This document shows, piece after piece, positions 7,595-63,133 of a DNA stretch of 64,000 nt (positions within the stretch are counted from its first letter, which is position 1; every line of letters starts with the position of its first letter). The stretch lies in NCBI RefSeq assembly GCF_058153355.1, contig NZ_CM177019.1; one strand, written 5' to 3'. Position numbers and translations under genes: made by a program. Under the pieces are notes generated by a model that was given only the letters and a program-made list of their open reading frames with translations, did not search any database and had not been told where the DNA came from.

Positions 7595-7696
7595 AATTCA
7601 CATCCTGCCAGTAGAGAGAAATTAATGTAAGAGTTCCCGGAGTGCTGAATGTATTCAGCACTCAATTGCGGTCTGTTTTTTTAATTCTTAAATTTA

Positions 7697-8092: not shown

Positions 8093-8095
8093 TCC

Positions 8096-9547
8096 TTAAT
8101 GTGAGGTCTGCCGGCGCAGGAAGCGTCCCGCACGGCCTGTAATGTGTTTATCGCGACCATAGCTCATAACGCCGTTCACCATCACCGCCTCAATGCCATC
8201 TGCCGGGCGTTTGGGATCAGAAAAGCTGGCAACATCACGAATGGTTTGTGGATCGAACAACACCAGGTCCGCAAAATAGCCAACTTTCACCAGTCCACGC
8301 TGGGGCAGGCGAAAACGGCTGGCAGAAAGCCCGGTCATTTTGTGGATAGCCGTGGTCAGTGGGAATAAGCCTTCATCACGGCAATAGTGGCCCAGCACGC
8401 GAGGGAAGGCGCCCCATAAACGTGGATGCGGCATGGGATCATTGGGCAGGCCGTCAGAGCCAATCATACTGACCGGATAACTCAACACTCGGCGGACGTC
8501 GCGCTCGTCCATGTTGTAATAGATAGCCCCGGCAGGCATTAGCAGCTTCGCGGCCTCCAGCATACTCATCTGCCAGTCGATGGCGATTTGCGCCAGTGTT
8601 TTCCCGGCCTGCTGCGGATGTGTTTGTGACCAGGTGATCACAATATCGAATTCGTCGGTGACTTGTTTGAGATCCAGCGTTGAAGAGCTGGCTGAGTAAG
8701 GGTAGACATCGCAGCCAATTTCCTGGTGTTGACGCATTTGGTCAAAAAAAGCCAATGTTTCTTTTGTCCGCCCCCAGTTTTTCGCCCCGGCGCATTTATG
8801 GTGGGAAACCACGATAGGCACTTTGCCATGACGCCCAATACGAAACGCCTCATCCAGGGCATCGAGAATCGGTTCAAATTCAGAACGCAGATGGGTGGTA
8901 TAAACGCCCTTCTCACCGGCTAATTCTTCCGCCAGCGCCATGACTTCTTCGGTAGTCGCCTGAAATGCCGTTGCATAGGCCAGCCCGGAACTTAACCCCA
9001 GCGCCCCCTGACTCAACGCCAGACGTAAGTCGGCACGCATAGCGGCAATTTCATCCACCGTCGCCGGGCGAAACAGGTCGTCCATATGGTTATTACGCAG
9101 CGCCGTATGACCAATCAGCGTGCCAACGTTCAGTGACGGCCTGGCTGCTTCCACTGCCTGGGCATAGCTTTCAACGGTGGGATAAATAAAGTGCTCTGCT
9201 TCCCCCAACAGATTCATCGGGTCAGGAACTTCACCTTTCATTTTCGCCGACGCCGCACTAATCCCGCAGTTACCGACAATCACCGTAGTGATCCCCTGGC
9301 TGATCTTTGGCAGATATTCCGGGATGCGAATAACGTTGATATCGTCATGGGTATGAACGTCGATAAACCCTGGTGCCAGCACCCGCCCTTCCCCGTCAAT
9401 GACCTGCTGCGCCGTAACGTTAAGCGCAGGGGCAATATCGACAATCCGATCACCTGTTATTGCCACGTCACCGCGAAATTCAGGGCCGCCGCTACCGTCG
9501 ATAACGGTCACATTTTTGATTAACCAGTCAACCTGCATGTTCGTCAC
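8096..9547 (-). CDS. N-acyl-D-amino-acid deacylase (D-aminoacylase) family amidohydrolase
   Basis: 483 aa; metal-binding HTHDD motif near N-terminus, GNCG segment, length typical of D-aminoacylases. Confidence 0.75.
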   Translation of the reverse strand: MTNMQVDWLIKNVTVIDGSGGPEFRGDVAITGDRIVDIAPALNVTAQQVIDGEGRVLAPGFIDVHTHDDINVIRIPEYLPKISQGITTVIVGNCGISAASAKMKGEVPDPMNLLGEAEHFIYPTVESYAQAVEAARPSLNVGTLIGHTALRNNHMDDLFRPATVDEIAAMRADLRLALSQGALGLSSGLAYATAFQATTEEVMALAEELAGEKGVYTTHLRSEFEPILDALDEAFRIGRHGKVPIVVSHHKCAGAKNWGRTKETLAFFDQMRQHQEIGCDVYPYSASSSTLDLKQVTDEFDIVITWSQTHPQQAGKTLAQIAIDWQMSMLEAAKLLMPAGAIYYNMDERDVRRVLSYPVSMIGSDGLPNDPMPHPRLWGAFPRVLGHYCRDEGLFPLTTAIHKMTGLSASRFRLPQRGLVKVGYFADLVLFDPQTIRDVASFSDPKRPADGIEAVMVNGVMSYGRDKHITGRAGRFLRRQTSH

Positions 9548-9738
9548 TCCATTTCTGCAATGGTGACAAGTTAACCATTTACAAGGACGAAAAACAGTGG
9601 AAAACTACGCAAAACCCAGATGATTTTATGATACTTTTATTCATAAACTATAAGATAAATAAACTAAATATTTATATTTCATTTAGTTACAAATGATACC
9701 CATATCCGATACGGTGAAAAACTTAAAAGGTAAATGTT

Positions 9739-10959
9739 ATGAAATACCACTCAGAACCTCTGGTTCCCCATAAATCGGCCCTGATGCAAATGCCCGCAAA
9801 TCTCCTTGCCGAAGATGTCTGTTTACCTGCCGCGATCATTAAAAAGCAGGCCCTGGAGAACAACATTACGTGGATGCAACGCTACGCTGACGCGCGCGGC
9901 GTTTCACTGGCACCGCACGGTAAAACCACCATGACGCCGTGGATTTTTCAGGCGCAGCAGGCGGCAGGCGCCTGGGCAATAGGTGTCGGTAGCGCATGGC
10001 AGGCTGGTGCGGCAATGGCGAGCGGTATTCAGCGTGTGCTGATGGTTAACCAGTTGATCGGCAAGGCAAATATGCAGTTGATTGCCCGGTTGCAACGACA
10101 TTACCCGACGGTCGATTTTATCTGCTGTATCGACAGCATTGAGAACGCCCGCGCTTTGTCTGCCTTTTTTGCCAGTCAGCAACAGACACTGAACGTGATG
10201 ATTGAGCTGGGTGTTCCCGGCGGACGCTGTGGTTGCCGCTCAACGGATGCAGCACTGGCACTGGCTAAACAGGCGGCCCAATTACCAGGGCTACGTCTGC
10301 GCGGGCTTGAGTTATATGAAGGTGTTTTACACGGTGACGATCCACAACCGCAGGTAGAAGCTCTGCTGCGGGATGCCGCACAACTGGCCTGTGATATGGC
10401 AAGTTTGGTTGATGGCGAGTTTATTCTCACCGGAGCAGGCACGGTCTGGTATGACGTGGTGTGCAATATCTGGCTGGCGGCAGAAAAGCCTGATAACTGC
10501 CGCATTGTTATTCGCCCTGGCTGCTACATCACTCACGACACCGGGATCTACGACGCGGCACAACAACAGTTGCTCGCCCGTGATCCTGTGGCCTGTGATC
10601 TGGCAGGCGATCTCACATCTGCGCTGGAACTGGTCGCCATGGTGCAATCGGTGCCGGAAGCTGATCGTGCGGTGGTAAATTTTGGTAAGCGTGATTGCGC
10701 CTTCGACGCCGGACTGCCGCAACCAGTCGCCCACTATCGCAACGGCAAATCACTGGCATTTGATCCACAGGCGATTCGCAGTACAGGTATTATGGATCAG
10801 CACTGCATGTTGCAACTGTCAGCTAATAGCGACGTGCAAGTGGGGGATATTCTGGTGTTTGGCACATCGCATCCGTGCCTGACCTTCGACAAATGGAAAA
10901 CGTTGTTATTGGCTGATGACGACTACAACGTACTGGCGGAATTAGACACTCTCTTCTAA
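9739..10959 (+). CDS. Alanine-racemase-fold PLP enzyme of the DSD1 / D-threonine aldolase / D-serine dehydratase-like family
   Basis: 406 aa; PLP-lysine motif APHGKT near N-terminus; divergent from the aminoacylase operon across an AT-rich 190-bp spacer. Confidence 0.7.
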   Translation: MKYHSEPLVPHKSALMQMPANLLAEDVCLPAAIIKKQALENNITWMQRYADARGVSLAPHGKTTMTPWIFQAQQAAGAWAIGVGSAWQAGAAMASGIQRVLMVNQLIGKANMQLIARLQRHYPTVDFICCIDSIENARALSAFFASQQQTLNVMIELGVPGGRCGCRSTDAALALAKQAAQLPGLRLRGLELYEGVLHGDDPQPQVEALLRDAAQLACDMASLVDGEFILTGAGTVWYDVVCNIWLAAEKPDNCRIVIRPGCYITHDTGIYDAAQQQLLARDPVACDLAGDLTSALELVAMVQSVPEADRAVVNFGKRDCAFDAGLPQPVAHYRNGKSLAFDPQAIRSTGIMDQHCMLQLSANSDVQVGDILVFGTSHPCLTFDKWKTLLLADDDYNVLAELDTLF

Positions 10960-10964
10960 GAATA

Positions 10965-10996
10965 CCCCTTCGGTTAATTATCGAAGGGGCATTTTT
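10965..10996 (+). terminator. Rho-independent terminator after the DSD1-like gene
   Basis: ccccttcg / cgaagggg stem followed by CATTTTTATT. Confidence 0.7.
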
Positions 10997-11042
10997 ATTG
11001 TGATCTCAATCACATATCCACCCGACGAATAATTCTTGCCCA

Positions 11043-13763: not shown

Positions 13764-14720
13764 ATGAACCCGATTGCAGTTACCCTACTCACCGGTTTTT
13801 TAGGCGCAGGCAAAACCACCCTGCTGCGCCATATTCTTAATGAACAGCACGGCTACAAAATTGCCGTGATTGAAAACGAATTCGGCGAAGTCTCCGTTGA
13901 TGATCAACTGATTGGCGACCGCGCCACGCAGATCAAAACGCTGACCAACGGCTGCATCTGTTGTTCGCGCTCCAACGAGCTGGAGGACGCGCTACTCGAC
14001 CTGCTGGATAATCTCGACAAGGGCAATATTCAGTTCGACCGTCTGGTCATTGAATGCACAGGCATGGCCGATCCCGGCCCGATTATTCAGACCTTTTTCT
14101 CCCATGAGATTTTATGCCAGCGTTACCTGCTGGACGGCGTGATTGCGCTGGTGGATGCGGTACATGCCGATGAGCAGATGAACCAGTTCACCATCGCCCA
14201 GTCACAGGTTGGCTACGCCGACCGCATTCTGCTGACCAAAACCGACGTCGCAGGCGAAGCAGAAAAACTGCGTGAACGCCTGGCGCGCATCAACGCCCGC
14301 GCACCGGTCTACACCGTCACCCACGGCGACATCGATCTGGGCCTGCTGTTCAACACCAACGGTTTTATGCTGGAAGAAAACGTCGTCAGCACCAAACCGC
14401 GTTTCCACTTTATCGCGGATAAACAAAACGATATTTCGTCGATTGTGGTGGAACTGGATTACCCGGTAGATATCAGCGAAGTTTCTCGGGTGATGGAAAA
14501 CCTGCTGCTGGAATCGGCGGATAAACTGCTGCGTTACAAAGGGATGCTGTGGATTGACGGCGAACCAAATCGCCTGCTGTTCCAGGGCGTCCAGCGCCTC
14601 TACAGCGCCGACTGGGACCGCCCGTGGGGCGATGAAAAACCGCATAGCACAATGGTGTTTATCGGGATTCAGCTGCCGGAGGAAGAGATTCGGGCTGCGT
14701 TTGCGGGGTTGAGGAAGTAA
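13764..14720 (+). CDS. yjiA: CobW/P47K-family GTPase
   Basis: 318 aa from internal Met (GGAGAG RBS); P-loop GFLGAGKTT. Confidence 0.9.
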   Translation: MNPIAVTLLTGFLGAGKTTLLRHILNEQHGYKIAVIENEFGEVSVDDQLIGDRATQIKTLTNGCICCSRSNELEDALLDLLDNLDKGNIQFDRLVIECTGMADPGPIIQTFFSHEILCQRYLLDGVIALVDAVHADEQMNQFTIAQSQVGYADRILLTKTDVAGEAEKLRERLARINARAPVYTVTHGDIDLGLLFNTNGFMLEENVVSTKPRFHFIADKQNDISSIVVELDYPVDISEVSRVMENLLLESADKLLRYKGMLWIDGEPNRLLFQGVQRLYSADWDRPWGDEKPHSTMVFIGIQLPEEEIRAAFAGLRK

Positions 14721-14788
14721 GTTCGGGAAAGATCAACTTTTTGAGAGTTCCACCGCAATATTATTACGAGTGGAACTCTTTAGATATG

Positions 14789-16463
14789 TCAGACCAACCA
14801 AAGCTTCTTCAATTGCGTTTTCATTTTTTCATGTCTCATTTTCAGTTCAGCCAATCCCCATTCTGAAGAATTACAAACATCTTTTGTTAAATCAAAAGAG
14901 CTTTTACTATTAAGTTTCTCATAAATAGATTTCTTTTTGATAAAATCATAGTGTTGTGCTTCAGAATTTTTGGAACCACTTATGAGTGTTAAATTACCTA
15001 TTTTATGCAGCCAGTAGACATGCTCTTGAGGTTGGAATCTATTAATCCAGTATTCATTAACTAATGCTTGAGGAAGAATATGCTCAATTGTGATTCTCCC
15101 CGTATAGGTTTTAATCACGCTCTCATCTTGTTGCTCCATATCTAAGCGAAGCAAAATTGCTTTTATTAAGTTCACTTGATTCGGACGAGGCTCATATAAA
15201 TCTTCATCCAGTGCAGCTATAAAACCTGAATTATCTGCATGTTGGTTTATCTGATTTATCACAGAATCAAAAGGCATATCATTATTTATTGCTACCAGAG
15301 CTGAATAACAAACCATTTCTCTTTGGCTTTTAATTTGTTTTTTTAACCACCCATGCATATATACCTTCTCAAAGGCGGTAATAAATTGAGAAAAATCATC
15401 TAAATTAAAATCTTCTGTACGAGCCATTCGATTCATGAATGCCATAACCGGAGGAATCCACTCATCTACCCCTAAATTACTTAGCGATGCTATTTTTCGT
15501 CGTATTGAAGGGTGTTCAAAATCATTCTCTAAAATCTTAGTATAATTTTTTGCAGAATTAACCAACATCAGTGACATAGCAATAGCATCTCCATCAAATT
15601 GCTGCTGGAGATTTTCAATAAAAGCTTCAAAACCTTTTTGTAACACCCTGTCACGATCTTTTTTCTCGGAAAGCTTATGAAGAGTAAGAAATTTATCAAG
15701 CCGTCTCACTCCAACCATATCTTCAATTTGCGACCATGCTGATTCTATTTGCTCTAATTTTTTATTATGTGTAGAAGCTGATTCAAACAGTGCATTTTTT
15801 AAAAGAACTGCATTACTTAAAGGTAAACCTCGACTATTTAATACATTAAAGAGTCTAAATGATGATGCGAAATCATCTGTTTGCACAAATACGATATATA
15901 CATTTTGCAAAATATATTTAGCAAGCAACTTCAACTCATCAACAGATAACCGCAACAAATAATCTCTAATTGTTTCAGCGTTGCTAATGAATACTAAATC
16001 AGTATCCGATGGCTTTTCAGGCTTATAATCTTTAGAATCCTGCAGTATATAATATTTATAAAGATCATACTCTTTTTTTCTAACAATTAGTCTTGGTTCA
16101 TCTGTTTCATCAGAATAAACATCAATAGGTAGAACTCTTTTTTTGCAAATCATCTTTTATCCCCTGAATCGGGATGATTTTTTTTAGCTCGGAGACAATA
16201 ATACTTAACGTTGTAAGACGTTGTTGCCCATCTACAACTTCATACTGATTTTGCCCTTTATTGATACAAATCATACTCCCAATAAAATATTCATTCTCTT
16301 CTGATTGAGAGCTTTTATAAATGTCATCAATGAGTTGCTCTGCATTATCTACCGTCCAACTGTAAGGACGCTGATAAGAAGGAATAATAAACTTTTTGTT
16401 TTCAGTAAGGATATCCTGCACCTTACATTCTTTAGCTTCCATTTCATATACCCAATCAAACAA
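14789..16463 (-). pseudogene. GmrSD-like type IV restriction endonuclease (DUF262 ParB-like N-domain plus DUF1524 HNH-like C-domain), frameshifted
   Basis: Two overlapping minus-strand ORFs (16463-16122 and 16153-14789). The upstream piece has the DUF262 motif PSYQRPYSW...DGQQR. They are joined only by a 1-nt frame change inside an A7 run (plus-strand T7 at 16138-16144). AT-rich. Confidence 0.7.
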
Positions 16464-16599
16464 TCAACAATAACATTATCTTTCTTGCCCGAAAGAAACG
16501 CAACTATAAGATTTTTATATATTTTGTTAGAGATATTAGTAGCAAAAGGCCACGATAAATTTCTCTCCCCTTCCCCATACGGGAAGGGGAAATACCCCC

Positions 16600-46988: not shown

Positions 46989-47026
46989 ATATTGCGTACC
47001 AGCATTAGCAATGTCCTGTGATTTCT

Positions 47027-47929
47027 TTATTGATAAACAAAAGTCACGCCAATAATCGATTGCACATTCCCTGCAGTCACCTGCCCTCCGGTACGTGCGT
47101 AATTTGCCGTTAATCCCAGACTTACCGCCGAAGTCCCTACTGCTCCTAACGATACCGTGTTATTCGCTGGAATAATCGTACCGTTGCGCGTTAACTGTAC
47201 GCCGACGCCCTGTGCTGGTGAAAACGACGCGGTATTGGTGAAAATCGAGTTGCCCGCATCTGCGGTTGTGCCGGAGAGGTAATACCCCAGGTTTTGGCTT
47301 TTCGCACAATAAACGGTAAGAGGAATAGGTACCGAACCGGGATAGTCCGGCAGAGTCACGGTGACATCACGAGCAGAAACATCACAGCCGCCAGTGGGCA
47401 CCACCACATCATTATTGGCGTAAATATTCCACACAAACTGGAAATCATCGCTGTTATAGTTGTTGGTCTGTCGCAAAATAAGCACGGCAATTAATGAGCC
47501 AGCTTTAATCGCCACCCCGCCCGCACTGCTCACAGGCGTCAAATAAAGCGCCACCGGCCACGGCTTATCCGTTCTCGAATTATAAACAACGCGCGGCGTT
47601 TCGCTGGTGGTAGGAAATGGATAGCTACTGCCACTATATTTTACGGTCCCGGAAAAATGAGATAACACGCCGCCATAAGCCGAACCTCGTTGCAGTGTGA
47701 CATAGTCTGTAATGGTTTCCGGGTAATCGTTATGGCAAAAGATTTGCGTCGAAAGATCTACGACCAGGTTTTGCCCCACATTCACGGCGGGCGCAAGGTT
47801 TACATAAACATTGGCGCTGCCACCGCCAATAGGGATAGCGGTGCCATTGGCGGTTTTACAGGCGAATGACCAGGCATTTACCGACCAACCCATCAACAGT
47901 ACAGCAAACAGGGTAATAACTCTTTTCAT
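47027..47929 (-). CDS. fimH: Type 1 fimbrial mannose-binding tip adhesin
   Basis: 300 aa; MKRVITLFAVLLMGWSVNAWSFACKTANGTAIPIGGGSANVYVNLAP. Confidence 0.97.
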   Translation of the reverse strand: MKRVITLFAVLLMGWSVNAWSFACKTANGTAIPIGGGSANVYVNLAPAVNVGQNLVVDLSTQIFCHNDYPETITDYVTLQRGSAYGGVLSHFSGTVKYSGSSYPFPTTSETPRVVYNSRTDKPWPVALYLTPVSSAGGVAIKAGSLIAVLILRQTNNYNSDDFQFVWNIYANNDVVVPTGGCDVSARDVTVTLPDYPGSVPIPLTVYCAKSQNLGYYLSGTTADAGNSIFTNTASFSPAQGVGVQLTRNGTIIPANNTVSLGAVGTSAVSLGLTANYARTGGQVTAGNVQSIIGVTFVYQ

Positions 47930-47948
47930 TACAATCATCTCTTCGGAT

Positions 47949-48452
47949 TCAGCTGTAGGTATAGGTGATGCTAATCACTGCCTGAATGGTTCCCTGAGTG
48001 GCTCCGCCATTTACCGTCAATGCTCTGACCTGTAACGGGAAGTGCGCTGATTGTGAGGAATCATCCACCTGAACTGTTTTGGTTGCGCCAGTATTCAATG
48101 TGTTGCCACTGTCATCCTGTAGCTCTAACTGGATGTTTTGCGCGGTCCCCTGGTTTTTATAATATCCCGTACTATCGGCTGCCCCGCTGAAGCTGGCGGT
48201 GACCCTCGATGTTCCCACCGGACAATGAGTCAACTCAAGCGCAACATCATGCCAGGCCGATGCCGCACCGGCAGACACGAGACTGAAAGAATAAAGATCG
48301 CCGAGATCAACCGTGGCATTAGTGGTGGAAACCGTGCACGGTTTGGCGACGACCTTACCGTTCACGGTGATCGTGACATCGGCGGCCTGTAGCGTCGCAC
48401 TTACGAGCGTCAACATTGCCGCCAATAAACACCCACGTATGCGCCATTTCAT
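47949..48452 (-). CDS. fimG: Type 1 fimbrial minor subunit
   Basis: 167 aa from MKWRIRGCLL. Confidence 0.95.
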   Translation of the reverse strand: MKWRIRGCLLAAMLTLVSATLQAADVTITVNGKVVAKPCTVSTTNATVDLGDLYSFSLVSAGAASAWHDVALELTHCPVGTSRVTASFSGAADSTGYYKNQGTAQNIQLELQDDSGNTLNTGATKTVQVDDSSQSAHFPLQVRALTVNGGATQGTIQAVISITYTYS

Positions 48453-48464
48453 GAGCATCTCCAG

Positions 48465-48995
48465 TTACTGATATTCAAGAGTGAAGGTAGCCGTGGCATT
48501 GATATGCCCCGCAGTGACAGGCACCTGTGTCGCCATTAGCCGGGCGTAAAAATTCAGCGTATTTGGTTTACCCGGCGTCAGGGTCGTCCACGAAATCGCG
48601 GAGGATGGCGCATTAAGGGGGATCTGATTTTGTTGCTCATTCAGAAGCTGTATTCCCAGCCCCGCAGCCGCTGACACCGTATTTTCAAGTGCAAGCAGGT
48701 TGGCATTGTGACTATCTGCAACGCCGGTAAACCCAACCTTTACGGCAGAAACGGCATTACCACAGGGTGACAGCAAAATACGAAATGGAACGACAGGAGT
48801 CGTCGCGCCAATGTTGTTAAATTGCTTCGCCGCGTTTTCCATCAGATCAACAGTAAAATTGGTTGATTCAGCGGCCACACTACAGCCGTTATCTCTGACA
48901 TAGCCGCGGATAGTAATCGTGCTATCCGCAGCCAAAGCGTGACTTACCGCCAGCCACAAAAAAGCGCACAGAAGATAAAAAGGTTTGCTTTTCAT
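48465..48995 (-). CDS. fimF: Type 1 fimbrial minor subunit
   Basis: 176 aa pilin-like protein between fimD and fimG. Confidence 0.95.
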
Positions 48996-49004
48996 CACGC
49001 CCCC

Positions 49005-51641
49005 TTAACGACATTCAGCTGATAGCTGGGTTAATAACTGCTGCTGACTCTCTGGTGGCAGTTGATAATTGGCGACACAGTGAGCATTTTCCTCTTCTCC
49101 CCATTTCACCTGAACTTTTCCCGCTAAAGGCATCCCGCTGAGATAAACCTGACCATTATCCGCAACAATGCCGCTACTCTGGCTACTCTCTGATGTGACC
49201 ATCGCCCCAAACGGCAGCGGCTTATTATTGTGGGTTAGCGTCATGAGCAGTTTTATCCCAACACGCGCTTTAAACTCTGCTCGCACAATTGCCCCACGGG
49301 TGGGAACAACGTTAGCGACCGCGTTATCTAAATCGACGTTATCAGCCAGGGTATTGGTATCCAGCGCCACTCTATTTTCCCGATATTCTGTGGCATAAGG
49401 CAGCACGGCATAGCCGCGCCAGTCGGTACGCACCCCCGTCTGGTTTTCAACTTTTGCATCTTTTGCGCCGGGCGTTTTAACAAGCACCACCGTATCGTTT
49501 AACGGCTGCCCCAGCGTTACGCCATTGGCATGAGCCAATACCCCACCGCTGATTCCGTAATAGAGCTGCTTAATATCATCGCTATGGCTGTAACCAATGT
49601 TGGCATTGCCGTAGCCACCGCGATAATTCAGCGCGGCGTAGCCTGTACTTCCGCTATTACCATCGCCTCCCCCGGCATAGCCGGTTTGCACGCTATAGCT
49701 GAGGTTATTGTCTTCCAGCAACGTACCGTATACGCCCGCAAGGTTGGTCATCCGACCGTTGAGATCGTGTGACATGCTGTAGCTGGCACTGGCATGTCGC
49801 CACTGAGATTTACTGTCAGAACGCAGCCAGTGGCTGAAAGGAATATTGATGTTAAGAGCCAACATCTGATCCCGTCCTTTTTGCCACGCGTTTTTCGTCA
49901 GGCTATAGCTGAGCGTCCAGTTGATATCTTCGAAAGCAGTATTTAATCCAGCCTGGAATTGCTCATCGACATTACTCGTTCCCCAATAAGTTTGATGGCT
50001 ACCACTCAAATACAGTGTTGATGTGCGTCCGAGTTGCTGAGTAACAGTGAGCTGTAATTTCCCGCGTTTGTTATAAGCGAGATTGTAATAGTCGGTAAAT
50101 TTCGGCTTAACCTGAATAACACCATCCTGTGTTTCGATGTTGTAGCCACTCATTCGGCTGTATGTTGTATCAGCGAAATTAAAATACCCGCTGGTCGAGT
50201 AACGGTAACCCACTAACTGAAAATTCGTACCTGACTCATTGAGCGATTTGTTATAGAGAAAACGCACCGATTGCCCGTCATGCTGACTGTCATCAGGAAG
50301 TGTGGAATTAGCCTGCGTCATATCCACGGACAGAGCGCCCAGTGCCCCCATGTTTTTCCCGATACCGAAATTAAAAGCGCGATAACGATCCGCCAGTTGC
50401 GTTCCACCATATATTGTCCAGCCAGCCGGAAGGCCGTGGAGTAATGTACTCTGGAAAAAACGGGGTTTATCCTGTTGCGCATTTCCACTACGGTATTCTC
50501 CTGCCGTAATGGAATAACGAGTATGCCCTTCACGTTGCAAAAGCGGGACTGACGAATAGGGTACGGTAAAGATCTGCGTGCTACCGTCAGCCTCTTTAAT
50601 CGTTACCTGCAAGTCACCACTATTACCTGCGGCATAGATATCGTTGATGGTAAAAGGCCCCGGTGGCACCGTACTATTATAAATGTCATACCCATTTTGT
50701 TTAATAGTGACCTGTGCAGTACCACGAGCAATACCGTGGATCACCGGGGCAAATCCTCTTTGGCTATCGGGTAACATATTGTCATCTGAGGCCAATTGTG
50801 CGCCGCGGAAGTTAATACCATCAAAAATATCGCCCTGAGTATAACCATCACCCAGCGTCAGCCGGGAACGCAACGGTATTATGTCTCGCTCAAGCCAGGT
50901 ATTGATATGCTGCCATTTATTTTTGCTACCTGATGAACTGTCGCTACTGTTATAACTCCAGGTGGTATTGTCGCGTAAACGCCATGCACCAATATTTAAC
51001 CCACTCTGTAGGTTTAAATATGCATAATGGCTGTTACCACCAATCCGATTCTGTACACTATTTCCGCTGAAATTATAATTGAGCAATCCGGCATTAATAC
51101 CGGGATCCCATAACTCAGGAGGAATATAACCACGCGCGCGATTACTCATAAATGCCTGAGGGATCGTCAGGTTGAGTCGCTGCTGACCAACATCCAGATG
51201 CGCAGTAGCGTCATGGATCATTGAGGTTAATGGCACGCAGGCATCATCCGCCAGCAGATTCATACCGGAGACAGAAGCCGTATTCAGCCCCATACTGGCA
51301 AGTTGCGCGCGTGTCAGGCAGGGAACAATCCCTTGTTCACTGTCGCCCGTATTAAATGTGACATCACGCGTTGCCATATAACCATTATTCAAATAGATAT
51401 CGACGCGATACGTCCCTGGCGGTAATTCTTGACCATTCTCGAAACGCGATAAATCGGCCACAGCCTGGGGATCATCCGCTAAAAAGCGCGGATTAAAATA
51501 GAGTTCGGCAGATGACAAATGTGCCTGTGCGGCAAAAGCACAGGCGACAAAGAGCCGAACAAAAAAACCAGCCAGACGAGGCTTACGAATATGCAAGCAT
51601 TGTGTGTTTCGCTGGTAAAGTCTTAAATTCAGATATGACAT
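49005..51641 (-). CDS. fimD: Type 1 fimbrial outer-membrane usher
   Basis: 878-aa usher. Confidence 0.97.
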   Translation of the reverse strand: MSYLNLRLYQRNTQCLHIRKPRLAGFFVRLFVACAFAAQAHLSSAELYFNPRFLADDPQAVADLSRFENGQELPPGTYRVDIYLNNGYMATRDVTFNTGDSEQGIVPCLTRAQLASMGLNTASVSGMNLLADDACVPLTSMIHDATAHLDVGQQRLNLTIPQAFMSNRARGYIPPELWDPGINAGLLNYNFSGNSVQNRIGGNSHYAYLNLQSGLNIGAWRLRDNTTWSYNSSDSSSGSKNKWQHINTWLERDIIPLRSRLTLGDGYTQGDIFDGINFRGAQLASDDNMLPDSQRGFAPVIHGIARGTAQVTIKQNGYDIYNSTVPPGPFTINDIYAAGNSGDLQVTIKEADGSTQIFTVPYSSVPLLQREGHTRYSITAGEYRSGNAQQDKPRFFQSTLLHGLPAGWTIYGGTQLADRYRAFNFGIGKNMGALGALSVDMTQANSTLPDDSQHDGQSVRFLYNKSLNESGTNFQLVGYRYSTSGYFNFADTTYSRMSGYNIETQDGVIQVKPKFTDYYNLAYNKRGKLQLTVTQQLGRTSTLYLSGSHQTYWGTSNVDEQFQAGLNTAFEDINWTLSYSLTKNAWQKGRDQMLALNINIPFSHWLRSDSKSQWRHASASYSMSHDLNGRMTNLAGVYGTLLEDNNLSYSVQTGYAGGGDGNSGSTGYAALNYRGGYGNANIGYSHSDDIKQLYYGISGGVLAHANGVTLGQPLNDTVVLVKTPGAKDAKVENQTGVRTDWRGYAVLPYATEYRENRVALDTNTLADNVDLDNAVANVVPTRGAIVRAEFKARVGIKLLMTLTHNNKPLPFGAMVTSESSQSSGIVADNGQVYLSGMPLAGKVQVKWGEEENAHCVANYQLPPESQQQLLTQLSAECR

Positions 51642-51707
51642 TATTCCTCCGGTTTAAAATTACCCGGCAGTCAATTCTTTTTATTCAGGCGAAAAATTCC
51701 CCCTGCG

Positions 51708-52433
51708 TTATTCCATTACGCCCGTCATTTTTGGGGTAAGTGCGCCATAATCATTTATTGTTCGGTAAGTAATGTTGCTTCCTGCATCAGAAGGTAATTT
51801 AACTGTGCTTTCGCCCATTGGAGGCACCAATGCATTTTCAAGAACCCGAGTTCCGGCATTCAACTCTGTTACCGTCAGGTAATAGGGTGTCGGGTTAATC
51901 AGCGTCAGAGAATTCGCGCTACGACGAAATCTTAATTTTTCTGCGGCCTGATCGGGTGGCAACGCTAATTTAGCCGGGCGATAGTACAATTTAATGCGGC
52001 TGATAATTGCGAGCTGTAGCGTATTCTCAATCAATTTTGATTTATCCATTGACGGAATCGCTTTAACGTTCATCCAGAATAAACTTTCCCGATCCTGTGG
52101 CAATTGGTTATTTGTGGCATCAAGAATACGTAAGGTATTCTCTTTTTTTCCCTTCATCGCAAACAGAGGTGGCGTCACGATAAAACGACCATCCTTTACA
52201 CCATCGGCATTTTCCACCCATGATTGAATTAAATAGGTGCTATTTTCATCATTATTTGTCACGGCAAGTTGCACTTGTTTTTGCCCTGCCGGATAAATTA
52301 CGCGAGTCGCACCTAAGGCCACTCCTGCTTCCGCGCGTCCGGCAGCCATCATTGCCATGATCATCAGGATACCTGCCAGCAAGCAGAATGTTATTTCCTG
52401 CAATTTCCTTACATTGACGTTTTTATTACTCAC
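51708..52433 (-). CDS. fimC: Type 1 fimbrial periplasmic chaperone
   Basis: 241-aa PapD-like chaperone. Confidence 0.97.
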   Translation of the reverse strand: MSNKNVNVRKLQEITFCLLAGILMIMAMMAAGRAEAGVALGATRVIYPAGQKQVQLAVTNNDENSTYLIQSWVENADGVKDGRFIVTPPLFAMKGKKENTLRILDATNNQLPQDRESLFWMNVKAIPSMDKSKLIENTLQLAIISRIKLYYRPAKLALPPDQAAEKLRFRRSANSLTLINPTPYYLTVTELNAGTRVLENALVPPMGESTVKLPSDAGSNITYRTINDYGALTPKMTGVME

Positions 52434-52469
52434 TGTCCTGTTCCTGTTATCACATTATCTGCTGAACAA

Positions 52470-53009
52470 TTACTGATAGGTTAAAGAGAACCAGGCCTGA
52501 GCATTGGCGATGCCGCCAGTAACCCGACGCCCGGTAGCACGATATTTGGCGATGAAATGTAACGACGTAGAGCCTGAGTAAAGTCGTTTCCAGTTTGCTG
52601 GAGGACGATTAATCGGTACAAGGTTTCCTTCATCATCAAACAACGCTACGCCAATATTGGTGGCAATCCCTGGCCCCTCTCCCACGGAAAGCACATCCGG
52701 ATTTTTACCATCCGCGACACCGTGAAACGCCACACCCACACGTTCACTCACCACCGTGCTACATTCCCGTAAATGAATAACAAAAGGCACCGGTGCGCTA
52801 TCTTCCCCAACCGCATGAAACCGGTTACTGCTGATTTGCCTCATATTGACCGTCATTTGTTTATCACCAGCTTCAATCCGGCAAGCTTCTGCAATAATGA
52901 CGCCCTGAAATTGCATATTTCCGCCGGGCAACGTGGTGTTCCATTTATTTCCGGCCAGAGCAAACATTGGCAGCAACGACGCTAATAGAAATAATCTCTT
53001 CCTTTTCAT
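52470..53009 (-). CDS. fimI: Type 1 fimbrial FimA-like protein
   Basis: 179 aa from [16 protein letters not shown]; the listed ORF's 5' extension overlaps fimA and is discounted. Confidence 0.85.
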
Positions 53010-53073
53010 CGTTATTTTTATCGCACAAGGGTGGGCATCCCTGCCCATAATGACGTCCCTGAACCTGGGTAGG

Positions 53074-53622
53074 TTATTGATACTGAACCTTGAAAGTCGC
53101 ATCCGCATTAGCAGCACCTGGGGTTGCGGCACCGGTTGCAAAGTAACGCGCCTGGAACGGAATGGTGTTAGTACCGTTATTCAGGGTTGTTTCTGCACTA
53201 AATGTCGCACCGTCCAGCGCCAGTGCAGCACCCGTTCTGTCCAGGATCTGCACACCAACGTTTGTTGCACTACCTGCAGCAGAACTCTGCAGAGCCAGAA
53301 CGTTGGTATGAGTCGCATCAATCGCCGTACCTAAAAAGGCAACAGCGGCTTTTGATGCAACATTGGTATCGCAATCATTCAGCTGAATGTTAAAACCGAC
53401 AGCAGAACTGGTTGCTCCGTCCTGTGCCAGCGATGCGGCACGAACCTGTCCTAACTGAACGGTTTGATCAACAGAGCCTGCATCAACTGCGCAAGCGGCG
53501 TTAACAACTTCCCCTTTAAAGTGAACGGTCCCACCATTAACCGTCGTGGCAGCGGCCAGAGCCGCTGTAGAACTGAGGGACAGAGCCGACAGAACAACGA
53601 TTGCCAGAGTTTTAATTTTCAT
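53074..53622 (-). CDS. fimA: Type 1 fimbrial major subunit
   Basis: 182 aa from [23 protein letters not shown]; the listed ORF carries a spurious upstream extension. Confidence 0.97.
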
Positions 53623-53738
53623 GCTGCTTTCCTTTAAAAAACTATTTCTAAATCGACATGGGCAGTCGTTCTGTACACTTTGTTTTGAAACGAATTGGAC
53701 TGCCAACACTGCACAGTTCTTCCCCAAAAGATGAAACA

Positions 53739-54053
53739 TTTGGGGCCATTTTGACTCATAGAGGAAAGCATTACGCACGAACTTTCTTAGTTTATTATTT
53801 GGATTTATATTCTATTAATACATTATTTTATAGATTTTTATATTGAACGCGGTGGTTTTTGGAGAGATGAATGAGGAAGTTGCTTCGAGACACAGAAACG
53901 TTAGCTTTACCTATAGCGGAGGTGATGTGAAATTAATTTATAAGAGAAACAATTTACATATCAAACAGTTAGTTGCTTTATGTCGTTTTTTTATATTTTT
54001 ATGCTTGAGAACAAATACAAAACTTTTTTATGATATGGACAGTTTGGCCCCAA
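53739..54053. promoter_or_regulatory. fimS: fimS invertible phase-variation switch, bounded by 9-bp inverted repeats
   Basis: TTGGGGCCA at 53739-53747 and exact reverse complement TGGCCCCAA at 54045-54053, 315 bp end to end, between fimE and fimA. Confidence 0.9.
54005..54035 (+). promoter_or_regulatory. Candidate sigma70 promoter inside fimS (probable fimA promoter), directed toward fimE in this sequence
   Basis: TTGAGA-18 bp-TATGATA on the plus strand, about 10 bp inside the fimE-proximal inverted repeat. No comparably good -35/-10 pair was found on the minus strand at the fimA-proximal end. Confidence 0.5.
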
Positions 54054-54100
54054 TTGTCTTATATTTCCTTATCTTTTCATATTATTATCAATAAGTTACA

Positions 54101-54697
54101 TCAGGCATCTTCTCTTTTTAATTTTTCGTTTATGAGATTATTTCTTTCCCATAATCCGGCAAAACGTGCAGCATTACTGGCGGTATAACGCACAGTATGG
54201 CGAATATTTCGATGCCCGAGATAATCCTGAATTAAACGGGTATCTGCACCACGCTCCGCCAGTTCATAACCGCAAGCATGCCTTAACATATGAGGATGAG
54301 TCTGCGTCACGGTTCCAGCTTCAATACCGGCATCGCGAATAATGCGATAGGCCTGCTGGCGAGAAAGTCGACTCCCGCGGCGAGAAATAAATATGGCGTC
54401 GGTCTGGTCAGCGCCTTTCCAGTTAATACGTTCCTGGGTCCAGCGCTCCACAGCTTCACGCTCATCAAAACGTAACGGGTGAACGGTAGAAAATCCGTTC
54501 TTCAGTCGGCGAATATTTATTCGACCTTCGTTAAGGTCAAGATCCTGATAATGCAGATCAAGCAGTTCACTAATACGCATCCCATGCCGATATGCCAACA
54601 AAATTAGGCAATAATCTCTGGCTCCCGTTGCCCCGTAACAAACCGCCTGCATCATGTCCTGAACTTCTTTACCGGTAAGATAACGACGTTTACTCAC
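54101..54697 (-). CDS. fimE: Tyrosine recombinase (ON-to-OFF fim switch)
   Basis: 198 aa; recombinase motifs HPHMLRHACGY...LGHRNIRHTVRYT. Confidence 0.97.
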   Translation of the reverse strand: MSKRRYLTGKEVQDMMQAVCYGATGARDYCLILLAYRHGMRISELLDLHYQDLDLNEGRINIRRLKNGFSTVHPLRFDEREAVERWTQERINWKGADQTDAIFISRRGSRLSRQQAYRIIRDAGIEAGTVTQTHPHMLRHACGYELAERGADTRLIQDYLGHRNIRHTVRYTASNAARFAGLWERNNLINEKLKREDA

Positions 54698-55174
54698 AAT
54701 AGTAGTACTCCTGACTGAGATATATTTGAATGAATACCTATAGGAAACCTCGATCGGTTAAAATTAGCCCAATAGATAAAAAGATAACCACACAGGAAGT
54801 TATGTGGCTATCAGTCAATTACATTAAATATCATACAAAAATAAAATATCACTGATGTGACAACATCTATTTTCATTGATTTGATTCAATATAACAATAG
54901 ATTGCAGCGGATTAACTTCCAGTTGCTTAAAAAATAAAGAAAAAAGTGCAGAAACAGGAGAACTTGAGTGATGTGTAAATTTATGAATGATTTTGTTTAT
55001 TTATTTTGAAGAACATAAACCATTGTATTTTGTATGGATATGGTTAACTTAATGTTTATTATGATAATTAAGAATCACACTTACAATAACATCAATTAAT
55101 AAATGGTTAATCATTTTTGATATATCGTAAGAATAATGTATTTTTTAACACCATCCCTGGTATCTCATCTATCT

Positions 55175-55777
55175 CTATAAAACAGCGTGATGCTGTCGTC
55201 CTCTGGCTCTATCCCAGATGCCGTAAAAACGCCCTGCATTGCTGGCGGTATACCAGACAGTATGACGAATATTGCGATGCCCAAGATAATCCTGGATAAG
55301 TCGTGTATCTATTCCCATATTCGCCAAAGCAAAACCACACGAATGGCGTAACATATGCGGATGAATCTCCAGTGATAACCCAGCATTACCACCAGAAGTC
55401 GAGATAATATGGTAAAACTGTTGCCGAGAAAGCGGGTTCCCCTTACGTGATAAAAATACCCACTCGCTCTCAGCATGCGGATAAGAAGTACGTATACTCA
55501 ACCAGTTTTTTAAAGCCTGAACTTCTTTGTTCAATAGCGGGTGCGTTGTTGAAAAGCCTTTTTTTAATCGATGGATATAGATACACTTTGCCTTAAGATC
55601 AATATCCGAAATCCTCAATCGACAAATTTCACTCGCCCGGAAACCATGAATAAAACAAAGCAAAGTCAGACAATAATTACGTGCTGCATGAGGCCCGGTA
55701 TTTGCTGCTTTAAGGAGTGACTCGATTTCACTATGGGTCAGGAAGTTCCTTTTTTTGTTATCAGCCTTATTCTTCAT
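55175..55777 (-). CDS. fimB: Tyrosine recombinase (bidirectional fim switch)
   Basis: 200 aa; paralogue of FimE (HPHMLRHSCGF...LGHRNIRHTVWYT). Confidence 0.97.
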   Translation of the reverse strand: MKNKADNKKRNFLTHSEIESLLKAANTGPHAARNYCLTLLCFIHGFRASEICRLRISDIDLKAKCIYIHRLKKGFSTTHPLLNKEVQALKNWLSIRTSYPHAESEWVFLSRKGNPLSRQQFYHIISTSGGNAGLSLEIHPHMLRHSCGFALANMGIDTRLIQDYLGHRNIRHTVWYTASNAGRFYGIWDRARGRQHHAVL

Positions 55778-56801
55778 CGTTTTCCCTTATAATTACAGAC
55801 GCGCACTAGCTGTGCTGGGTTAGCAATAATCCAACATTTTAATCCTGGTTATGTTTATAAAAGCGAACGTTTGCTTAATAACTAACGTAAGTGGACCAGT
55901 TCTTCTGAGTGAACTAAAATGGAGTAGCGATAGTTACTTATAATAACTTTGCCATACAAACGCCATGCTCTTGCATGCTATGTACCCTTATATATTTATC
56001 AATCTGATACGAATCTAATAATAACCCTCATCATTAATGCAACTAATCTTATCTATATATCATGTGATATGTTCTGTAACAAGTAAAATCAACATAAAAA
56101 ATTCAGCAAAATTTAATATTCGTTCAACTAGCCGTCTCACATATGACATTATTAGTCAACTGCATTTGCCACAAAATGGCTATTTCATGGAACGCAGTAA
56201 TTTCTTAGCGTCTATTATCATGCTAATTCTTAGGTCCCTAGCGATTATTCCTGCCTGGTTCGTCAGCTTACGCCATGAGATTGCTACATTCCTTTTTATC
56301 CTGGAGATATGGGGGAACGCAGGCGACGCTTTTTCATCTACATTCGTTGGTAAATATGGCTTTGGTCACTACGACTTAAACCTTCCTCAATCACAGCTAT
56401 TCGCCGGGCGATACGGCAAACAAACTAAGTGAAACATCATCCTGAAAACACCAATGCGTACTGAACATCAACAAGCCTCTCCTGATCGACTTCAGAAGTG
56501 ACCAGTTACAAGCCACAAACCTGGAAACATATTTCATGATGAGAATTATGCTCAGCCTGATGGCGGGTAAACACTTATTTTCACCACGCTCACTGAGTTA
56601 GCCAGCAAAGCTCCCCTTGTTTAGAGTGCAAATAAATAACATATAAAACAAATAGTTAATAAAATATCTTTGATTTGTGAAGGCCATCGTAAGTGTTCGT
56701 CTGACTTCACATGGCATCTTCTTCATAGAAAAATATAGACATATTTTGTGACACGAATTGCAAATCTGGTTTTGTTATATGGCTTGTGTGATTTTTGATA
56801 T

Positions 56802-56824
56802 GGTATAACAGGTATAAAGGTGTA
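56802..56824. promoter_or_regulatory. NanR operator (GGTATA repeats) in the fimB-nanC intergenic region
   Basis: GGTATAACAGGTATAAAGGTGTA, three tandem GGTATA-type hexamers about 380 bp upstream of nanC. Confidence 0.65.
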
Positions 56825-57205
56825 CCGAAGTAGTCAATGAGACTGAGCATCTCGCAATCTATGACAAACATCACTTCAGTCTGAAAGGAGTATGAAAATG
56901 AGATCAACAAACTTTCTATTTTATGACTCTGGGTAAAATGGATTGAGTAAGTGATATCGCTTACGAATATTCAAATCAATTAAACATCAGAAGAGATTTT
57001 ATACTCAGGTATTTAATCTGGCCCTCTGTTTATTTAAATAATGTGGAAGAGAATTTTCACAGGAGACCTTATACAAAAAATATAAAATACAGCTACCCGT
57101 TACCAAAGACACTATAAGCCTGGCAAAAAATATTACACAACATAAATGCTAATTGTTTATGCGGGCTTTGTATTGCTTTCTGTATCCTACAAATGAGTGA
57201 AATTT

Positions 57206-57922
57206 ATGAAAAAGGCTAAAATACTTTCTGGCGTATTATTACTGTGCTTTTCGTCACCATTAATTTCTCAAGCTGCGACACTGGACGTACGTGGTGGATA
57301 TCGTAGTGGAAGCCACGCCTATGAGACTCGACTCAAAGTCAGTGAGGGATGGCAAAATGGATGGTGGGCAAGCATGGAAAGTAATACCTGGAATACCATT
57401 CATGATAATAAAAAGGAAAATGCCGCACTCAATGATGTTCAGGTTGAAGTTAATTACGCGATTAAACTTGATGATCAATGGACGGTGCGCCCGGGAATGT
57501 TAACGCATTTTAGCAGCAACGGCACACGCTACGGACCCTACGTAAAATTGTCCTGGGACGCGACAAAAGATCTTAATTTTGGTATTCGCTATCGTTACGA
57601 CTGGAAAGCTTACCGACAACAAGACTTATCCGGTGATATGTCTCGTGATAATGTTCATCGTTGGGATGGATATGTCACTTACCATATTAATAGTGATTTC
57701 ACCTTCGCATGGCAAACGACGCTATACAGCAAACAAAACGATTATCGCTATGCAAACCATAAGAAATGGGCGACGGAAAATGCATTTGTTCTACAATACC
57801 ATATGACGCCTGATATTACGCCATACATAGAATATGACTACCTTGACCGTCAGGGTGTTTATAACGGCAGAGATAATTTATCAGAAAACAGTTATCGCAT
57901 TGGTGTGTCATTTAAACTGTAG
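57206..57922 (+). CDS. nanC: KdgM-family N-acetylneuraminic acid outer-membrane channel
   Basis: 238 aa from MKKAKILSGVLLL with signal peptide; C-terminal aromatic residue pattern of a beta-barrel. Confidence 0.9.
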   Translation: MKKAKILSGVLLLCFSSPLISQAATLDVRGGYRSGSHAYETRLKVSEGWQNGWWASMESNTWNTIHDNKKENAALNDVQVEVNYAIKLDDQWTVRPGMLTHFSSNGTRYGPYVKLSWDATKDLNFGIRYRYDWKAYRQQDLSGDMSRDNVHRWDGYVTYHINSDFTFAWQTTLYSKQNDYRYANHKKWATENAFVLQYHMTPDITPYIEYDYLDRQGVYNGRDNLSENSYRIGVSFKL

Positions 57923-57941
57923 TAGACAGGAGACAGTCACA

Positions 57942-59048
57942 ATGAATAAAACAATAACGGCGCTTGCTATCATGATGGCTTCATTTGCCGCAAACGCGTC
58001 TGTATTACCGGAAACTCCGGTGCCATTTAAAAGTGGTACCGGAGCAATTGATAACGACACTGTCTACATTGGTTTAGGTAGCGCAGGTACAGCATGGTAC
58101 AAGCTGGATACACAGGCCAAAGATAAAAAATGGACAGCGTTAGCTGCATTCCCTGGTGGACCGAGAGATCAAGCAACCTCTGCATTTATTGATGGCAATC
58201 TGTATGTGTTTGGCGGCATTGGCAAAAACAGCGAGGGCTTGACTCAGGTATTTAATGACGTACACAAATACAACCCCAAAACCAATAGCTGGGTTAAATT
58301 GATGTCGCACGCGCCGATGGGCATGGCGGGCCATGTGACTTTTGTACATGACGGCAAGGCTTATGTTACTGGCGGTGTTAACCAGAATATCTTCAATGGC
58401 TATTTTGAAGATCTCAACGAAGCTGGAAAAGATCCAACCGCTATAGATAAAATCAACGCCCACTATTTTGACAAAAAAGCAGAAGATTATTTCTTCAATA
58501 AGTTTCTGTTGTCTTTTGATCCCTCAACACAGCAATGGAGTTACGCTGGCGAATCTCCCTGGTACGGGACGGCTGGTGCAGCGGTTGTGAATAAAGGCGA
58601 TAAAACCTGGCTTATTAATGGTGAAGCCAAACCAGGACTACGAACGGATGCCGTATTTGAACTTGATTTCACCGGTAATAATTTAAAATGGAATAAACTT
58701 GCTCCCGTCTCATCACCAGATGGCGTCGCTGGCGGTTTTGCGGGGATAAGCAATGACTCACTTATATTTGCCGGGGGGGCCGGATTCAAGGGGGCGCGGG
58801 AAAATTATCAGAACGGTAAGAACTATGCGCATGAAGGCCTGAAAAAATCATATAGCGCTGATATTCATCTTTGGCATAACGGGAAATGGGATAAATCGGG
58901 CGAATTATCGCAAGGTCGGGCCTACGGAGTATCATTGCCCTGGAATAATAGTTTATTAATTATTGGCGGTGAAACTGCAGGCGGCAAAGCGGTGACGGAT
59001 TCAGTTTTGATCTCTGTGAAGGATAATAAAGTCACAGTACAAAACTAA
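57942..59048 (+). CDS. nanM: N-acetylneuraminate mutarotase (Kelch-repeat beta-propeller)
   Basis: 368 aa from MNKTITALAIMMASFAANA. Confidence 0.9.
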   Translation: MNKTITALAIMMASFAANASVLPETPVPFKSGTGAIDNDTVYIGLGSAGTAWYKLDTQAKDKKWTALAAFPGGPRDQATSAFIDGNLYVFGGIGKNSEGLTQVFNDVHKYNPKTNSWVKLMSHAPMGMAGHVTFVHDGKAYVTGGVNQNIFNGYFEDLNEAGKDPTAIDKINAHYFDKKAEDYFFNKFLLSFDPSTQQWSYAGESPWYGTAGAAVVNKGDKTWLINGEAKPGLRTDAVFELDFTGNNLKWNKLAPVSSPDGVAGGFAGISNDSLIFAGGAGFKGARENYQNGKNYAHEGLKKSYSADIHLWHNGKWDKSGELSQGRAYGVSLPWNNSLLIIGGETAGGKAVTDSVLISVKDNKVTVQN

Positions 59049-60830: not shown

Positions 60831-61760
60831 TTGAACAGCAGAAAATTTGCGAGCATGATCGCAATTATTTCACTGCCAGGGATATCAATGGCTTCCAGTA
60901 AATCGCTACAGCAGGCAATTGCCAACATAAAAATCTGGCACAAGGGTGAACAGCGCGCGCCGCATAAGCCATTGTTACTGCTATACGTATTAGCGGGATA
61001 CCTGAATGGACATCCGCGCCTTTTCGATTATGGCTCGGAAATCTACGAACCTCTGCACAGTTTACTGGAACGTTTTGGGCCACAGCGTTCACAGTACCGA
61101 CCTGATATGTCGTTCTGGCGATTACAAGGCGACGGATTCTGGCAATTACACAATGCCGAACTTTGCTCAACAGCAGGGAGTAGCCGACAACCGCCAGTGA
61201 AGGAACTGACCGAACACCGCGTTGCAGGCGGTTTCGATGAACAGCACTATGCCCTGGTAATCGGCAATAAAAAACTCATCAATACCCTAGCGCAACAGAT
61301 ACTCGAAGCGCACTTCACCGAGAGCATTCAGGAAGAAATTGCTGACGAGCTGGGTTTTGATCTCCAGCAAATCCGTAAACAGCGCGACCCGTTATTTCGC
61401 AAAAATGTATTACGCGCTTATAAATACCAGTGCGCGATATGTGGCTTTAATATGCGCCACGACGACACCACCGTCGCGTTGGAAGCGGCGCATATAAAAT
61501 GGAAACAGCACGGCGGTCCTTGTGAAATTCCTAATGGCCTGGCGCTTTGTGCAATACACCATAAAGCCTTTGATAAAGGATCGATTGGCCTGGATGAAAA
61601 TATGCGGGTACTGGTCTCGGATGCGGTAAACGGCGGAGGGATCGTTGAGAAACTATTCTGGGATTTTGACGGGAAAACTATTGCGTTACCACAGGTGCGT
61701 AAAAATTACCCTTTTGAGGGGTTTGTGGAGTGGCATCGAAAAGAGGTTTTTAGGGGGTGA
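60831..61760 (+). CDS. HNH endonuclease with N-terminal modified-DNA-sensing-type domain (possibly sulfur-binding-domain-like; candidate type IV restriction enzyme)
   Basis: 309 aa; C-terminal HNH (CAICGFN...EAAHIKW...CAIHHKAFD); roughly 200-aa N-terminal domain; divergent from the 216-aa HNH gene. Confidence 0.6.
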   Translation: MNSRKFASMIAIISLPGISMASSKSLQQAIANIKIWHKGEQRAPHKPLLLLYVLAGYLNGHPRLFDYGSEIYEPLHSLLERFGPQRSQYRPDMSFWRLQGDGFWQLHNAELCSTAGSSRQPPVKELTEHRVAGGFDEQHYALVIGNKKLINTLAQQILEAHFTESIQEEIADELGFDLQQIRKQRDPLFRKNVLRAYKYQCAICGFNMRHDDTTVALEAAHIKWKQHGGPCEIPNGLALCAIHHKAFDKGSIGLDENMRVLVSDAVNGGGIVEKLFWDFDGKTIALPQVRKNYPFEGFVEWHRKEVFRG

Positions 61761-61822
61761 GGTAGGCTATCTTGTGCATACAAATAGACAAATAAATTGT
61801 ATAAAGAGATAGCCTACAAATA

Positions 61823-63133
61823 CTAAATAAATTCAGCCCCACTAGGAAAACGCAACTCTGATGTCTGTAAACTCTCGCCAATAAAGAAAGGTACAACCCA
61901 TAAACGTAACCTATTTTCCTTCTGATGGCTAAATTCATAAGGATGAGGAGATGGCTGATTAAATCCGTTATGATAGGGGTATATCAAAATCATATCACCT
62001 TCCCCCTCCTGGTAATTCAATCCATAGGCAAGCATTTGGTAGAGATCGGCTTGAGATTGCTCAAGACTGTCCTTTCTGCCATTAACTATCTTCCATTTAA
62101 CATCACAGGTAATAACTGAACCAGTAGTACTTTTACGAGGCCGTAAACAAATATCAGGCCGCAGCTTAAATAAAGCTTTACCGTTATAACTAATCAGATT
62201 TTTTGAACTTACCTGTGCGTCCACTCGCCATTTATCATAATAACGATAACGCATCCATGTCGTCACAAAAGATTCAAAAACAGCCTCCATCGGGAAAAGC
62301 AGTGAAAAAGCATTAACATCCCCATACATACAGTGTGGAGAATCGCCCAATAAAATCATCTTCGCCCACGCTAATGCTTGCTCATAGTGATGCATTTGTC
62401 TATCAAAGTGTAACTGCTCGAAAGCTATATAAGCATCATGAACTGACGTGATATTTTCAAAGTGAAACTGCAGCTGTGTTATCTGCTGTAATAATTGTGG
62501 ATTACTGGTCTGGCGACTAATCTTATTGATTGCAGTTTTGAGTATCCGGTTTTCCAGACGATTGACGCTGTACTCGTCATACTCTACCTGAAAACGATCC
62601 CGCCTAATACAGTTTTTGCTTAATTGTGCAGAGATCCGTAATCTTCCTTTCATCCATGGAAGATTATCTTCCTGACGTAAATAGTCACGTTTTAACCCTC
62701 TCTGCACAATCTTACGCACGCTCTCTATAAATTGTTGAATAAAGATATCCATCAGAGGCATTTTAGATATTTTGACGCCAGATTCAGAGGAGGCAATATG
62801 ACGAAATGATTTTAACGTACGTAACATCATCAGTAATTGTTGACGAACAGTATCCTCATTATCCTGACCTGTTTTAGGCAGGATTTCGAGAAATCGCCCC
62901 CCTGGCAGTGAGATTACTCCTGCATAGTTTTTTACCTGCAGCGTTTTTACTCCATTCCGGCTGCTAAGGGTGAGCAAACGATGAGTATTATCAGCATCGT
63001 CTTTCAGACAGCGCAGCTCAAGCCATTTAAATAGGTCTGCAGGTAGCACTACCGCATTATTTATACGGGCATCACCTTCCTCACTCACTAAATGCCCGTA
63101 TTCGAACACAGTGAAATGACTGGAAGATTTCAT
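61823..63133 (-). CDS. McrC-like PD-(D/E)XK nuclease subunit of a McrBC-type GTP-dependent restriction system
   Basis: 436 aa from MKSSSHFTVFEY; C-terminal D...DVKWK PD-(D/E)XK signature; ATG overlaps the upstream McrB-like stop (ATGA). The listed ORF start at 63199 is discounted. Confidence 0.7.
   Translation of the reverse strand: MKSSSHFTVFEYGHLVSEEGDARINNAVVLPADLFKWLELRCLKDDADNTHRLLTLSSRNGVKTLQVKNYAGVISLPGGRFLEILPKTGQDNEDTVRQQLLMMLRTLKSFRHIASSESGVKISKMPLMDIFIQQFIESVRKIVQRGLKRDYLRQEDNLPWMKGRLRISAQLSKNCIRRDRFQVEYDEYSVNRLENRILKTAINKISRQTSNPQLLQQITQLQFHFENITSVHDAYIAFEQLHFDRQMHHYEQALAWAKMILLGDSPHCMYGDVNAFSLLFPMEAVFESFVTTWMRYRYYDKWRVDAQVSSKNLISYNGKALFKLRPDICLRPRKSTTGSVITCDVKWKIVNGRKDSLEQSQADLYQMLAYGLNYQEGEGDMILIYPYHNGFNQPSPHPYEFSHQKENRLRLWVVPFFIGESLQTSELRFPSGAEFI

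Follow-up and report, generated by a model that had tools for sequence, protein, structure and literature searches.

The 64,000-nucleotide stretch of DNA analyzed here (the window) carries the 314-bp fim switch of Escherichia coli, fimS, in the phase-OFF orientation, a reading to which we assign a probability of about 95%. Both the feature and its OFF state are already known, and only the sequence variant of the switch is rare.

Structure and Identity of the Switch

By the published definition, fimS is a 314-bp invertible element with 9-bp inverted repeats (5′-TTGGGGCCA) that contains the fimA promoter, and FimB and FimE invert it, with IHF and Lrp acting as cofactors. Every sequence-level feature tested was found in the window, and at this level the element is the type 1 fimbriae switch of E. 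coli (Table 1). The repeat on the fimE side, TGGCCCCAA, is the reverse complement of TTGGGGCCA on the fimA side. Both 9-mers are unique within the 64-kb window, and the composite pattern TTGGGGCCA-N296-TGGCCCCAA has a single match there and none in 100 dinucleotide-preserving shuffles. The exact 9-bp inverted repeats that the original prediction had placed between fimE and fimA are thus present, but the element, described as 315 bp long from 53739, in fact measures 314 bp from 53740. The asymmetric HinfI (GANTC) site announced within it also exists, although the position given for it, 53752–53756, was likewise one base off.

Table 1. Features of the fim switch region in window coordinates
Feature	Position	Strand	Description
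fimS, invertible fim switch	53740–54053	.	314 bp, phase-OFF orientation (see text)
IRR, TTGGGGCCA	53740–53748		9-bp inverted repeat on the fimA side; surrounding 53722–53771 identical to K-12
HinfI site GACTC	53753–53757		5 bp inside IRR; sole GANTC within the element, asymmetric; basis of the published orientation assay
Homologue of the Lrp-1/Lrp-2/Fis-binding region	53749–53855	.	Mapped from the 135-bp BSFORBIO/BSREVBIO probe; putative binding
IHF consensus match, TATCAAACAGTTA	53959–53971	+	Inside fimS; corresponds to IHF site 2
PfimA (putative)	54005–54034	+	−35 TTGAGA 54005–54010, 18-nt spacer, −10 TATGAT 54029–54034; 10/12 consensus positions
IRL, TGGCCCCAA	54045–54053		9-bp inverted repeat on the fimE side; surrounding 54027–54060 identical to K-12
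IHF consensus match, TATCAATAAGTTA	54086–54098	+	IRL–fimE spacer; corresponds to IHF site 1
fimE	54101–54697	−	Tyrosine recombinase, ON to OFF; 198 aa, 194/198 residues identical to K-12
fimB	55175–55777	−	Tyrosine recombinase, switches in both directions; 200 aa, 199/200 residues identical to K-12
fimA	53074–53622	−	Major type 1 fimbrial subunit, first gene of the operon
fimI, fimC, fimD, fimF, fimG, fimH	47027–53009	−	Remaining operon driven by PfimA in ON; open reading frames and strain MB52 annotation at the same coordinates

As had been predicted, fimA and fimE flank the element on the minus strand, and here the open reading frames agree with the RefSeq annotation of matching genomes. FimB and FimE both match Pfam family PF00589, and the window FimE protein is annotated as FimE in RefSeq. 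A 641-bp query over the region has matches in 4721 of 5426 complete E. coli genomes, where it lies between the genes annotated as FimA and FimE (type 1 fimbria switch DNA invertase). The element fimS itself is unannotated in the RefSeq records that were inspected, which list no features under the match. An Rfam scan of 52000–57500 returned no family at the gathering score. The sRNA FimR2 is annotated in MG1655 just downstream of fimA.

The candidate IHF sites are matches to the consensus WATCAANNNNTTR only, and K-12 carries both of them unchanged; the literature places IHF-2 within the element and IHF-1 between IRL and fimE. BSFORBIO/BSREVBIO, from which the putative Lrp-1/Lrp-2/Fis region was mapped, is the gel-shift probe of Conway et al. 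The segment around IRR that is identical to K-12 would include recombinase half-sites.

Orientation of the Switch

The MG1655 reference is scored OFF by three published criteria, including the HinfI and BstUI assays. The window is collinear end to end, without inversion, with the reverse complement of the MG1655 fimE–fimS–fimA region, and it is therefore also read as OFF. For PCR with CMD1258/CMD1259 followed by HinfI digestion, the published fragment sizes are 411 + 239 bp (OFF) and 522 + 128 bp (ON); in silico, the MG1655 reference gives 412 + 239 bp and its inverted form 129 + 522 bp. For PCR with OL4/OL20 followed by BstUI digestion, the published sizes are 539 + 187 bp (OFF) and 433 + 293 bp (ON), and the reference gives 540 + 188 bp, or 294 + 434 bp in its inverted form.

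When the HinfI assay is applied in silico to the window, it yields 234 + 414 bp for the sequence as it stands, which is the OFF pattern, and 517 + 131 bp with the element inverted. A natural genome of the opposite orientation, 13E0780, found by an in silico inverted query, yields 519 + 131 bp, with its junctions exactly at the repeats. Of the checks proposed with the original prediction, alignment to a reference of documented orientation (here, MG1655) returns OFF, as does the HinfI digest in silico; the predicted state is upheld by collinearity, fragment pattern, and promoter direction together, and no observation speaks against it.

A Rare Allele of fimS

The window fimS shares 279 of 314 positions with K-12 (88.9%, 35 substitutions), and identity to it over the 314 bp is 95% or more in only 13 of 4693 complete genomes, the remainder lying at about 86–93%. 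The alleles of K-12, CFT073, EC581, Trh52, and the O157-like RM19259 are 94.5–98% identical to one another but only 86–88% identical to the window. The window fimS is, to judge from these alignments, a rare and deep-branching allele, diverged by about 11–13% from the common ones.

In a 150-bp sliding comparison, the extra divergence occupies only some 450 bp (53733–54181) comprising fimS, the fimE–IRL spacer, and the last ~80 nt of fimE. Identity is 84–91% there, as against 95–99% both among the common alleles and over most of the flanking sequence; the exception in the flanks is fimA’s own variable stretch at about 53141–53440. As many as 20 of the 35 substitutions relative to K-12 fall within 53772–53850 (79 bp, ~25% diverged), in the homologue of the Lrp-1/Lrp-2/Fis region, and the fimE-to-IRL spacer is only 79% identical to K-12. 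Unchanged are 53722–53771, 54027–54060, both IHF matches, and both promoter hexamers.

The window FimE protein (WP_000044720.1) is widespread, being present in 688 index blocks, and all ten of the loci read (fimE at 1501–2097 and fimS at 2145–2458 of the locus extracts) have the window-type fimS allele, OFF, which suggests that the FimE variant and the switch variant travel together. Strain MB52 is 100% identical to the window over 641 bp around fimS, with identity falling to 97.6% across most of the window. Window segments 1–11000, 14720–16540, and 61030–64000 are not represented in the corresponding interval of MB52, where type I restriction-modification genes, an IS3 inside iatD, and a primase-helicase gene are located. 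Over 47000–59000, no complete E. coli genome exceeds 98.7% identity to the window, and no match to the allele-specific promoter end with its repeat turned up in a metagenome scan.

A donor species for the diverged patch was sought through repeats at 294–298 nt spacing, with one genome per species, and the sole other Escherichia entry was E. coli E69. With identities of 88.9% to the window and of 90.8% to K-12, the E69 allele represents a third lineage and not the donor; this fimS (CP089930.1, 513–827 of the locus extract) is 315 bp long and was captured ON. The R32_14_1F allele (285 bp, with scattered 1–5 bp gaps relative to the window allele; 2682–2966 of the locus extract) was set aside as a probable assembly or consensus error.

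Tentatively, the rare allele may be a distinct switch variant with an altered rate or an altered response to leucine, DNA relaxation, or Fis, perhaps one that recombination maintains or spreads separately from the neighboring fim genes; the one observation behind this suggestion, to which we give rather less than even odds, is the location of the divergence.

The same location allows a different reading, namely a locked or decayed OFF element in which divergence of the Lrp/Fis region has abolished or greatly reduced inversion. There is a precedent in the O157:H7-type fimS, where a 16-bp deletion locks the switch OFF. RM19259, a strain of this type, has this element at the same locus and likewise oriented OFF; its copy is, however, 298 bp long, with a 16-bp gap at the equivalent of window ~53973–53988, whereas the window element has exactly 314 bp and no such deletion. 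The overall divergence from K-12 and its concentration in 53772–53850 would fit a locked element, as would the OFF state of all of the ~20 genomes that carry the allele and the annotation of fimB as a frameshifted pseudogene in one of them, E. coli 2017-02-2CC (4117–4718 of the locus extract). However, at the species-wide ON rate of 5%, zero ON copies in 20 genomes are expected about one-third of the time (probability ~0.34), so that their absence is uninformative. Moreover, both repeats and at least 18 bp inside each are identical to K-12, as are 18 bp outside IRR, though no more than 7 bp beyond IRL; neither IHF consensus site is disrupted; FimB and FimE have their full length; and the allele is 98–100% conserved among its carriers, as expected under constraint. 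A locked switch is therefore improbable. The switch in the window looks functional, with FimB and FimE, its two IHF consensus sites, and the sequences next to its repeats all intact. All 245 ON genomes found with the in silico inverted query carry common alleles (~92% identity), and, as no ON copy of the window allele was found, its ability to invert is only inferred.

Prevalence of the OFF State

Among the 5426 complete E. coli genomes searched, 4455 matched the query in the window orientation and 245 matched its inverted form (94.8% OFF versus 5.2% ON), counting genomes that covered at least 80% of the query in one place. OFF is thus the usual captured state, and fimS as a family is seen in both orientations with junctions at the repeats. 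This prevalence fits the dominance of FimE, which drives cultures to OFF. OFF in the window is the default state and no notable capture; what an assembly records is the state that prevailed in the sequenced culture, and this is not a fixed genotype.

Cultures are mixed with respect to phase-variable inversions and an assembler outputs a single state, so the orientation might be an artefact, either a mixed-population consensus or a misassembled small inversion, that is uninformative about the strain. We regard this as very improbable, OFF being the majority state expected of FimE-proficient cultures. It would, in any case, be compatible with the OFF reading, since what was captured remains OFF, with clean, canonical junctions.

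The Probable fimA Promoter

According to the literature, the −35 and −10 elements and the start site of PfimA all lie inside the 314-bp element. A candidate outward sigma-70 promoter, the one strong match of this kind, is present, at the sequence level, near one end of the window element: the motif lies 11–49 bp inside the fimE-proximal repeat and is directed at the fimE 3′ end, away from fimA, which begins 118 bp beyond the fimA-proximal repeat. It had been predicted as a plus-strand TTGAGA-18-TATGAT promoter starting at 54005 and firing across the fimE-proximal repeat, and the scan recovered it exactly. The hexamers and their spacing are conserved in K-12, CFT073, and E69, and in the ON genome 13E0780 the same TTGAGA..TATGAT motif is on the fimA strand and aimed at fimA. 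Transcription would start at about 54041, some 7 nt past TATGAT and just inside IRL.

The assignment of this motif to PfimA is based on conservation and position, as no open-access text stating the hexamers or a mapped start site was found; nor were surveys of fimS alleles. The exact hexamers are reportedly those given by Olsen and Klemm (1994).

The scan also agrees with the prediction that no promoter of comparable quality is directed at fimA: the sole minus-strand promoter-like match in the element is a weak one (TTGATA-18-TAAATT, 9/12) in mid-element, running from 53964 to 53935 toward fimA, and there was no match near the fimA-proximal repeat or in the spacer from the repeat to fimA. A phase-ON assignment, with the true fimA promoter elsewhere on the minus strand, would have to rely on this match and has next to no likelihood, given that the match is at background level (four promoter-like sites in the scan versus a shuffle mean of 2.4), that two published restriction assays score the window configuration OFF, and that genomes of the opposite configuration reproduce the published ON sizes.

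Proposed Mechanism

FimB and FimE, both encoded just upstream and intact, would recombine within the 9-bp repeats and flip the element, with inversion assisted by IHF and Lrp, as established for this system. In the OFF state, PfimA would adjoin the fimE-proximal repeat and fire toward the fimE 3′ end; aimed away from fimA, it would leave fimAICDFGH without a promoter and the cell afimbriate. A Rho-dependent terminator inside fimS may, in the same orientation, shorten and destabilize the fimE transcript. Action of such a terminator on the fimE transcript in OFF is claimed in the literature, and a scan for intrinsic terminators found none, as expected for a Rho-dependent site. Inversion in the window strain, the start near 54041, the terminator, and the binding of Lrp and Fis are all inferred from established knowledge.

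Relation to Known Switches

The fim switch of E. coli K-12 was reportedly described by Abraham et al. in 1985 and by Klemm in 1986. The window element has in common with it the 9-bp repeats, the length of 314 bp, the position between fimE and fimA, the promoter hexamers with their 18-nt spacer, both IHF consensus sites, and the (OFF) orientation of MG1655. In Klebsiella, Raoultella, Citrobacter, Enterobacter, and Shimwellia, fimS has identical 9-bp repeats at 314–316 bp spacing and an AT-rich interior (31–38% GC), but these interiors are only ~60–63% identical to that of the window. The latter groups clearly with the Escherichia alleles (86–91%) and is, therefore, a within-Escherichia variant. 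Six to seven matches to the repeat pair in unrelated, mostly GC-rich genomes look like chance.

Proteus mirabilis mrp/MrpI, uropathogenic E. coli hyxR/FimX and ipuS, and Salmonella hin also place a promoter on a short invertible segment with inverted repeats and a site-specific recombinase. Their repeats, target genes, and recombinases (a serine recombinase in the case of Hin) are different from those of fimS; what the window contains is the fim switch proper and not an analogue of the mrp, hyxR, ipuS, or hin switches.

Consequences for Orientation Assays and Annotation

In contrast to K-12, the window fimS has neither the BstUI site close to IRR nor any SnaBI site (in K-12 located near the promoter), and it has an additional CGCG at 53848–53851; the differences in assay sites are located at 53772–53779, 53848–53851, and 54019–54026. 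With the K-12 BstUI site gone and the new CGCG in place, OL4/OL20 amplification followed by BstUI digestion would yield 262 + 463 bp (OFF) or 356 + 369 bp (ON). With the two K-12 sites missing, carriers of the rare allele would be mis-scored by the BstUI and SnaBI digests, two of the three standard orientation assays, which would yield either misleading fragments or none of diagnostic value; only the HinfI assay carries over to them.

The window adds nothing new on the mechanism, since this switch has served in textbooks as an example of phase variation by site-specific inversion since 1985, and both the K-12 reference and ~95% of complete E. coli assemblies show it OFF. However, as fimS goes unannotated in the records examined, recording its orientation tells an annotator that fimAICDFGH is promoterless in the captured state.
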